Shown piece after piece: positions 1 through 548 of a DNA stretch of 548 nucleotides (positions within the stretch are counted from its first letter, which is position 1; every line of letters starts with the position of its first letter). The stretch lies in the NCBI RefSeq assembly GCF_003334385.1, contig NZ_QOWN01000167.1; one strand, written 5' to 3'. The position numbers were made by a program, and so were the translations under genes. Origin of the DNA: Escherichia coli. Lineage in GTDB: Bacteria > Pseudomonadota > Gammaproteobacteria > Enterobacterales > Enterobacteriaceae. The notes below the pieces were generated by a model. That model had not been told where the DNA came from, ran no database searches, and was given only the letters and a program-made list of their open reading frames with translations.

Positions 1-60
1 TGTGCAGCCATTTTGTCCGCAGCCATCTGTCTGGCCGTATCCGGTGCGCCTGCATGGGCG
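1..60 (+). other. Signal peptide coding segment (partial; N-terminal charged region lies upstream of the window), with predicted signal peptidase I cleavage after A-W-A, so the mature protein starts at the Ser codon at 61..63
   Basis: A hydrophobic core ([14 protein letters not shown]) is followed by a helix-breaking Pro and an A-x-A motif (APAWA) at codons 46..60, then a polar mature N-terminus (SEQQ). This is the standard Sec signal-peptide architecture for outer-membrane proteins. Confidence 0.8.
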
Positions 61-548
61 TCTGAGCAGCAGGCCACACTGAGCGCAGGGTATCTTCATG
101 CCCGTACGAACGCTCCCGGCAGCGATGATCTGAACGGGATTAACGTGAAATACCGTTATGAGTTTACGGACACGCTGGGGCTGATTACGTCATTCAGTTA
201 TGCCAACGCTGAAGATGAGCAAAAAACGCATTACAGCGATACCCGCTGGCATGAAGATTCCGTGCGTAACCGCTGGTTCAGCGTGATGGCGGGGCCGTCT
301 GTGCGCGTGAATGAATGGTTCAGCGCGTATGCGATGGCGGGTATGGCTTACAGCCGTGTTTCGACTTTCTCCGGAGATTATATCCGCGTAACTGACAACA
401 AGGGGAAAACGCACGACGTGCTGACCGGAAGTGATGACGGTCGCCACAGCAACACGTCTCTGGCGTGGGGGGCTGGCGTGCAGTTTAACCCGACCGAATC
501 CGTGGCCATTGATATTGCTTATGAAGGCTCCGGCAGTGGTGACTGGCG
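1..548 (+). CDS. lom: Lom/Ail/PagC-family outer-membrane beta-barrel protein (lambda Lom-like), partial at both ends; the start codon lies just upstream of the window and the stop roughly 15-20 codons downstream
   Basis: Frame 1 is open across the entire window (about 182 codons, no stop). The translation begins with a hydrophobic signal peptide ([19 protein letters not shown]) and continues with motifs I recognise from lambda Lom and the Ail/PagC family ([68 protein letters not shown]). Aromatic and hydrophobic residues alternate in a way typical of amphipathic beta-strands. Codon usage is enterobacterial. The supplied ORF track missed it because the ORF is truncated at both window edges. 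Confidence 0.93.

Follow-up and report, generated by a model that had tools for sequence, protein, structure and literature searches.

A predicted signal peptidase I cleavage site in a prophage-borne Lom-like protein of Escherichia coli

The described proteins nearest to the one analysed here are Lom of phage lambda (NP_040601; PDB 9wso, chain C) and two barrels of solved structure, OmpX of E. coli (1qj8/1qj9) and Ail of Yersinia pestis (3qra). Lambda Lom has been called an outer membrane protein (PMC12309495, PMC12366544) and has been described as a β-barrel with an N-terminal membrane localisation signal peptide (PMC12309495). Its gene is dispensable for plaque formation (PMC10695390) and is said to be expressed in lysogens, and a link of the protein to adhesion to buccal epithelial cells is cited in two papers (PMC4198210, PMC12366544). 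When expressed from a plasmid, Lom gave strong defence against lambda-vir, and superinfection exclusion was proposed (PMC12366544). A 244-residue 'putative outer membrane protein Lom' from E. coli O104:H4, which is a different protein from the one encoded in the DNA discussed here, was classed as SP(Sec/SPI) by SignalP 5 and as SPI by LipoP (PMC12385595, Table 1). The literature searched yielded no experimental N-terminus or processing assay for the present allele or for any Lom-like protein. The full-length lambda protein has been deposited as PDB 9wso (206 residues as deposited, two chains), and no paper describing this entry was found in the literature searched.

How does the present locus compare with these systems? 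The window, by which we mean the whole stretch of 548 nucleotides that was analysed, is open over all 548 bases in frame 1 of the + strand, the other two + frames being full of stops. Residues 1–182 of its translation match Pfam PF06316 (Ail_Lom) over model positions 5–186 of 199 (E = 6e-114), and a full-length relative taken as query matches PHROG 108, 'Lom outer membrane protein', from end to end (1–199 of 199, E = 6e-110). Judged by these matches, the window is an internal piece, codons 5–186, of a 199-codon lom-like gene of the Ail/Lom/OmpX family, and its relatives indicate that the gene resides in a lambdoid E. coli prophage. NCBIfam models were matched below their cut-offs only, the OmpX equivalog with a score of 98 vs 176 and the Rck equivalog with 117 vs 258; since both scores fall well short, the Lom-like protein is a family member but not an ortholog of either. 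The PADLOC defence models gave no match to the protein.

The closest record is that of E. coli SCU-104 (99.6% identity), which differs at 2 of the 548 bases, both silently, so that the protein is identical over the window. It adds M-R-K-V before the window translation and 13 residues (RTDGFIVGVGYKF) and a stop codon after it, and this is also the distance by which the mature part in the window ends short of the C-terminus. The four N-terminal residues and the C-terminal β-signal discussed below are thus taken from this near-identical relative and lie outside the window. The ATG at position 3989 of the SCU-104 locus is the first possible start of the lom ORF, with a GAGG motif just 5′ of it (read by eye from the sequence); an alternative start codon further upstream was considered and rejected, as there is none in the SCU-104 ORF. 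In SCU-104, phage JLK-2012 and lambda, relatives that serve as guides here, the window itself being without flanks, lom has the tail tip gene J on one side and the side tail fibre gene on the other. DNA similar to the window is present in 197 phage records, annotated Lom or Ail/Lom, which include JLK-2012, cdtI, mEp460, phage 434 and many Stx-converting phages (93–96% identity), and the allele in the window is of the type found in JLK-2012, phage 434 and the Stx phages (93–96% DNA identity), not lambda's own. Lom-like DNA, again annotated Lom or Ail/Lom, is found as well in 4692 of the 5426 complete E. coli genomes; a genome has a median of 2 copies and at most 13, and 48 of the places are on plasmids. 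An exact copy of the window was absent from these 5426 genomes, the best match reaching 99.6%.

Lambda Lom falls into the same Pfam family and its gene has the same position between J and stf. The two proteins share an overall plan, with a start MR(K/N)VC..., a hydrophobic core, P-A-x-A and an acidic mature start, and they end in an identical 22-residue C-terminal block. They are, however, only 46% identical over their length, with 206 residues in lambda against 199 here and PARA/EGGH in lambda where the present protein has PAWA/SEQQ, and the two proteins diverge most in the external halves of the strands. OmpX and Ail share with the Lom-like protein the eight-stranded barrel, the [ST]-x-G-Y of the first strand and a Sec/SPI signal ending in A-x-A or V-x-A. 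At about 29–31% identity they are more distant, and the strand pairs and loops are longer in the Lom-like protein (199 residues, compared with precursors of about 171–180); its gene is prophage-borne, whereas those of OmpX and Ail belong to the core chromosome. The coordinates of the features discussed in the following are collected in Table 1.

Table 1. Predicted features of the lom-like coding sequence in the 548-nucleotide window.
Feature	Position in window	Strand	Basis
h-region, precursor residues C5–V17	1..39	+	translation, Kyte-Doolittle hydropathy, AlphaFold helix 2–17
c-region S-G-A-P-A-W-A, precursor residues 18–24	40..60	+	sequence, –3/–1 rule, 20 relatives
A-P-A-W-A-S, with the predicted scissile bond between bases 60 and 61 (Ala24/Ser25)	46..63	+	–3/–1 rule, matrix, conservation
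Predicted mature Lom-like eight-stranded barrel, precursor residues S25–W186	61..548	+	Pfam, PHROG, PDB matches, AlphaFold, Foldseek
Predicted first β-strand, precursor residues 28–40, with the [ST]-x-G-Y motif	70..108	+	DSSP on the model, family alignment

Bases 46–63 (GCGCCTGCATGGGCGTCT; codons GCG CCT GCA TGG GCG TCT) encode A-P-A-W-A-S and bases 61–72 encode S-E-Q-Q. The original prediction, which placed an A-P-A-W-A motif followed by SEQQ at this point, is borne out by the translation, with the detail that the range 46–63 takes in only the serine of SEQQ. We estimate at roughly 90% the probability that the first 24 residues of the 199-residue precursor represent a classical Sec-type signal peptide, cut between A24 and S25 so that the mature protein starts with SEQQATL. 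All three regions of such a peptide are recognisable. The n-region M-R-K, which lies outside the window and is read from SCU-104, has a net charge of +2 and is invariant in 20 close relatives. The h-region is a run of 14 uncharged residues (V4–V17, V4 being outside the window) with a mean Kyte-Doolittle value of up to 2.63 in 9-residue windows. The c-region has Gly at –6, Pro at –4, Ala at –3, Trp at –2 and Ala at –1, and there is no Pro from –3 to +1. Several other bonds pass the –3/–1 rule, at residues 12–18 inside the core, at residue 19 only two residues past it and at residues 32–34 inside the first strand, and A24/S25 is the only one of them with a c-region of normal length past the hydrophobic core.

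The same ending is found in BtuB (...FSAWA/QDTS) and ecotin (...TSAWA/AESV), which we take to be signal peptidase I substrates ending in A-W-A. In both, a short polar c-region leads up to Ala at –3, Trp at –2 and Ala at –1, and the mature protein has a polar or acidic start. They are unrelated proteins, and the likeness is limited to the export signal.

Taken alone, the A-x-A ending is weak evidence, because about 16% of shuffles of this protein have such an ending in the same stretch and the protein contains five A-x-A triplets. We have to consider that the tripeptide is there by chance, with the N-terminal hydrophobic stretch being an uncleaved anchor or no export signal at all. That reading can draw on the frequency in shuffles and on the four other A-x-A triplets, and it loses most of its ground as soon as the wider context of the site is scored. 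For this we used a home-made 15-column log-odds matrix, to be taken as illustrative only, derived from 23 classical signal peptides of E. coli and coliphages; OmpX was kept out of the training because it belongs to the same family. With each peptide left out in turn, the true site was ranked first in 20 of 23 cases. The A24/S25 bond scores 11.4 bits, a value reached by just 2 of 5000 shuffles, and the second-best site in the whole protein scores 5.6; the 11.4 bits are fewer than for any of the self-scored training sites (minimum 14.3). The whole 15-residue context of the site is not due to chance. The matrix also recovers SVA/ATST, known from the crystal chain, which we take to be the cleavage site of OmpX. 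For lambda Lom it is ambiguous, giving 6.4 to TPA/RA and 4.0 to ARA/EG, which marks its limits. Given also that the family is one of processed outer membrane barrels for which structures have been solved, we consider a chance motif on an uncleaved or non-exported protein to be very improbable.

A more serious competitor is a Sec signal in which signal peptidase I cleaves elsewhere, such as after Gly19 (VSG/APAW) or slightly into SEQQA. The VSG/A bond passes the bare –3/–1 rule, weakly positive matrix scores are seen at Q28/A29 (5.2) and G19/A20 (3.7), and in lambda Lom the matrix is undecided between two sites that are just two residues apart. Against this, a cut after G19, two residues past the core, would leave too short a c-region, Q28/A29 fails the rule with Gln at –1, and the score of A24/S25 is more than twice that of the runner-up. 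Conservation points in the same direction, as the close relatives have G, A or V at residue 19, while Ala at –1 of the A24/S25 bond is invariant and that at –3 nearly so. Overall we regard a different bond as unlikely, and A24/S25 as the preferred site.

The conservation was followed in two sets of sequences. The close set comprises 20 distinct relatives of 199 residues that are more than 60% identical to the query. Counted from the A24/S25 bond, all 20 have Ala at –1 and Glu at +2, and 19 have Pro at –4; at –3 there are 19 Ala and one Val. Position –2, on the other hand, is occupied by S, W, G or T and, at 1.44 bits, varies more than any other position nearby, while in the h-region there is variation at 9 of 14 positions. 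By the –3/–1 rule, a site in use by signal peptidase I is marked by fixed residues at –1 and –3 and a free –2, and this pattern is a further argument against a chance tripeptide. Searches returned 433 family members among representatives of 50%-identity clusters, and the wide set comprises 59 full-length family members, down to about 30% identity. There the N-terminus is net positive in 58 of 59 and a hydrophobic core is present in all 59; the best site lies 7–9 residues before the first-strand anchor (aligned to A33) in 48 of 59, with Ala at –1 in 47, one of A, V, S, T or G at –3 in 52, and 15 different residues at –2. The claim of a signal peptidase I site directly before SEQQ is thus upheld as a prediction of cleavage, by the –3/–1 rule, by the top matrix score and by relatives that hold –1 and –3 and vary –2.

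Close Lom-like proteins carry one of two types of signal peptide, the window type ending /SE and a second type, VVWQVAAATPASA/AE. Both retain an A-x-A site, and from E26 onwards the mature proteins hardly differ. Five singleton database entries (P0018, P0024, P0029, P0033 and P0074) have an unrelated N-terminus joined to Lom near the c-region, the N-terminal part of P0024 being a fragment of J; these fusions are probably deletions, assembly joins or gene-call artefacts.

Two cysteines are present in the precursor, C5 and C14 (window positions 1–3 and 28–30). Both sit inside the signal peptide, and the mature chain is Cys-free. Their presence within the N-terminal 14 residues might suggest a lipoprotein signal, with signal peptidase II cutting at Cys5 or Cys14, and a few distant family members do show a lipobox-like tetrapeptide (by the relaxed pattern) in the same region. 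Here, however, neither a strict PROSITE-style lipobox nor the relaxed pattern [LVI][ASTVI][GAS]C is matched at MRKVC or SAAIC. Ile at –1 of Cys14 is disallowed, Cys5 follows directly after the charged n-region, and if the cut were at Cys14, the mature protein would keep a hydrophobic segment. Neither cysteine is conserved, since other alleles have Tyr in place of C5 and Trp or Phe in place of C14. Moreover, neither OmpX nor Ail, the relatives of solved structure, is a lipoprotein, and in both the mature chain begins beside the position of S25. We therefore find a signal peptidase II substrate scarcely credible, the least probable of the readings considered. The original prediction had dismissed a lipoprotein on the grounds that the +1 position has no lipobox cysteine, and this holds also for C5 and C14, which it did not discuss. 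A Tat signal was rejected as well: the twin-arginine motif R-R-x-[FGAVML]-[LITMVF] is absent, the n-region being M-R-K, and this absence counts in addition against the motif being accidental. A Sec signal cut by signal peptidase I between A24 and S25 is accordingly the reading that we keep in what follows.

With a family alignment of 64 sequences as input, AlphaFold gave a model with a mean pLDDT of 93.4 and lower values (68–77) over the first 30 residues. It shows a helix at 2–17, coil at 18–27 and eight strands at 28–40, 47–58, 63–81, 86–106, 111–135, 141–166, 172–181 and 188–198. The predicted cleavage bond sits in the coil, and the barrel begins 3 residues after the predicted mature N-terminus. 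The best Foldseek matches are Ail (3qra, E = 5e-16) and then OmpX (1qj9), within an E range of 5e-16 to 4e-15. The sequence search of the PDB (phmmer) put lambda Lom first (9wso chain C, E = 1.6e-38), followed by the OmpX 1qj8 family (about 5e-17) and Ail (3qra/2n2l, about 1e-15); 9wso is missing from the top Foldseek matches, perhaps because the Foldseek library ends in April 2026. The mature N-termini of the solved relatives align just downstream of S25, by 1 residue in Ail (2n2l, 3qra) and by 2 in OmpX (1qj8 family). In the 64-sequence alignment G34 and Y35 of the first strand are nearly invariant, and so are, within the family, Y197 and F199 in the part outside the window, where the SCU-104 protein ends in ...GVGYKF. 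An aromatic C-terminal signal of this kind is typical of BAM-assembled barrels.

Export by the Sec pathway and insertion into the outer membrane had also been proposed from the motif, and the prediction is sustained here by the PF06316 match (6e-114), by the matches to Lom, OmpX and Ail, by the eight modelled strands and by the C-terminal GVGYKF. The outer membrane is the probable location by homology only, and the description of the protein as surface-exposed would likewise follow from its homology to OmpX and Ail. When variation among the close relatives was mapped on the model, hot spots appeared at 37–46 and 73–80, the tips of L2 and L4 were conserved, and the variation was not cleanly confined to the predicted external loops; the mapping is thus only partly informative and is given no weight in favour of surface exposure.

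From what is established for the Sec pathway, we would expect the 199-residue precursor to cross the inner membrane via SecYEG. LepB (signal peptidase I) would then cut after Ala24, reading Ala at –3 and –1 in a c-region that is probably kept extended by Gly at –6 and Pro at –4, and would release a mature protein starting with Ser-Glu-Gln-Gln. By homology, folding of the Cys-free chain by periplasmic chaperones and BAM would then give an outer membrane barrel of eight strands, whose termini are both likely to be periplasmic and whose long strand pairs are likely to project from the cell surface.

What is the role of this barrel then? The function of the mature protein is less certain than its export. 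The block to lambda-vir exerted by plasmid-expressed lambda Lom suggests a role against wasteful adsorption of sister phages. By analogy, the Lom-like allele might be a surface adsorption block against sister phages (superinfection exclusion), with alleles, including the two signal-peptide types, tracking the tail specificities of their carrier prophages; we put this forward tentatively and consider it rather doubtful in this full form. The feature itself is known already, being an unremarkable signal peptide cleavage site in a prophage gene that is very common. Its practical value is that it would fix the mature N-terminus as SEQQATL, which is useful for expression constructs, epitope work and mass-spectrometric identification. 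For annotation it means that the window is predicted to encode an exported barrel and not a cytoplasmic protein or a lipoprotein, and beyond such correct annotation it is of little import.

Two candidate elements on the opposite strand of the window were discarded. Nothing supports the antisense ORF at 190–447 (minus strand, 85 codons) as a real feature, and the sole Rfam match, ST7-AS1_2 at 453–523 of the minus strand, is meaningless, with 17 bits compared to a gathering score of 50 and E = 0.19.

The surroundings of the gene can be followed in SCU-104. There lom is bracketed by terminator-like GC hairpins with T-runs at 3940–3959 and 4615–4636 of the locus, the first shortly before the lom ribosome binding site and the second shortly after the stop codon; in all, 4 terminator-like sites were found in this locus against 1.3 expected in shuffles. 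With this bracketing lom looks like a self-contained inserted gene unit. The J gene upstream of it (locus 1–3921) is annotated as frameshifted and incomplete while lom is intact, and so the SCU-104 prophage may be defective while keeping lom. In the Stx phage Phi24B, a 20-nt small RNA, 24B_1, is reported to be encoded between lom and the next gene (PMC4426718), a region that lies outside the window.
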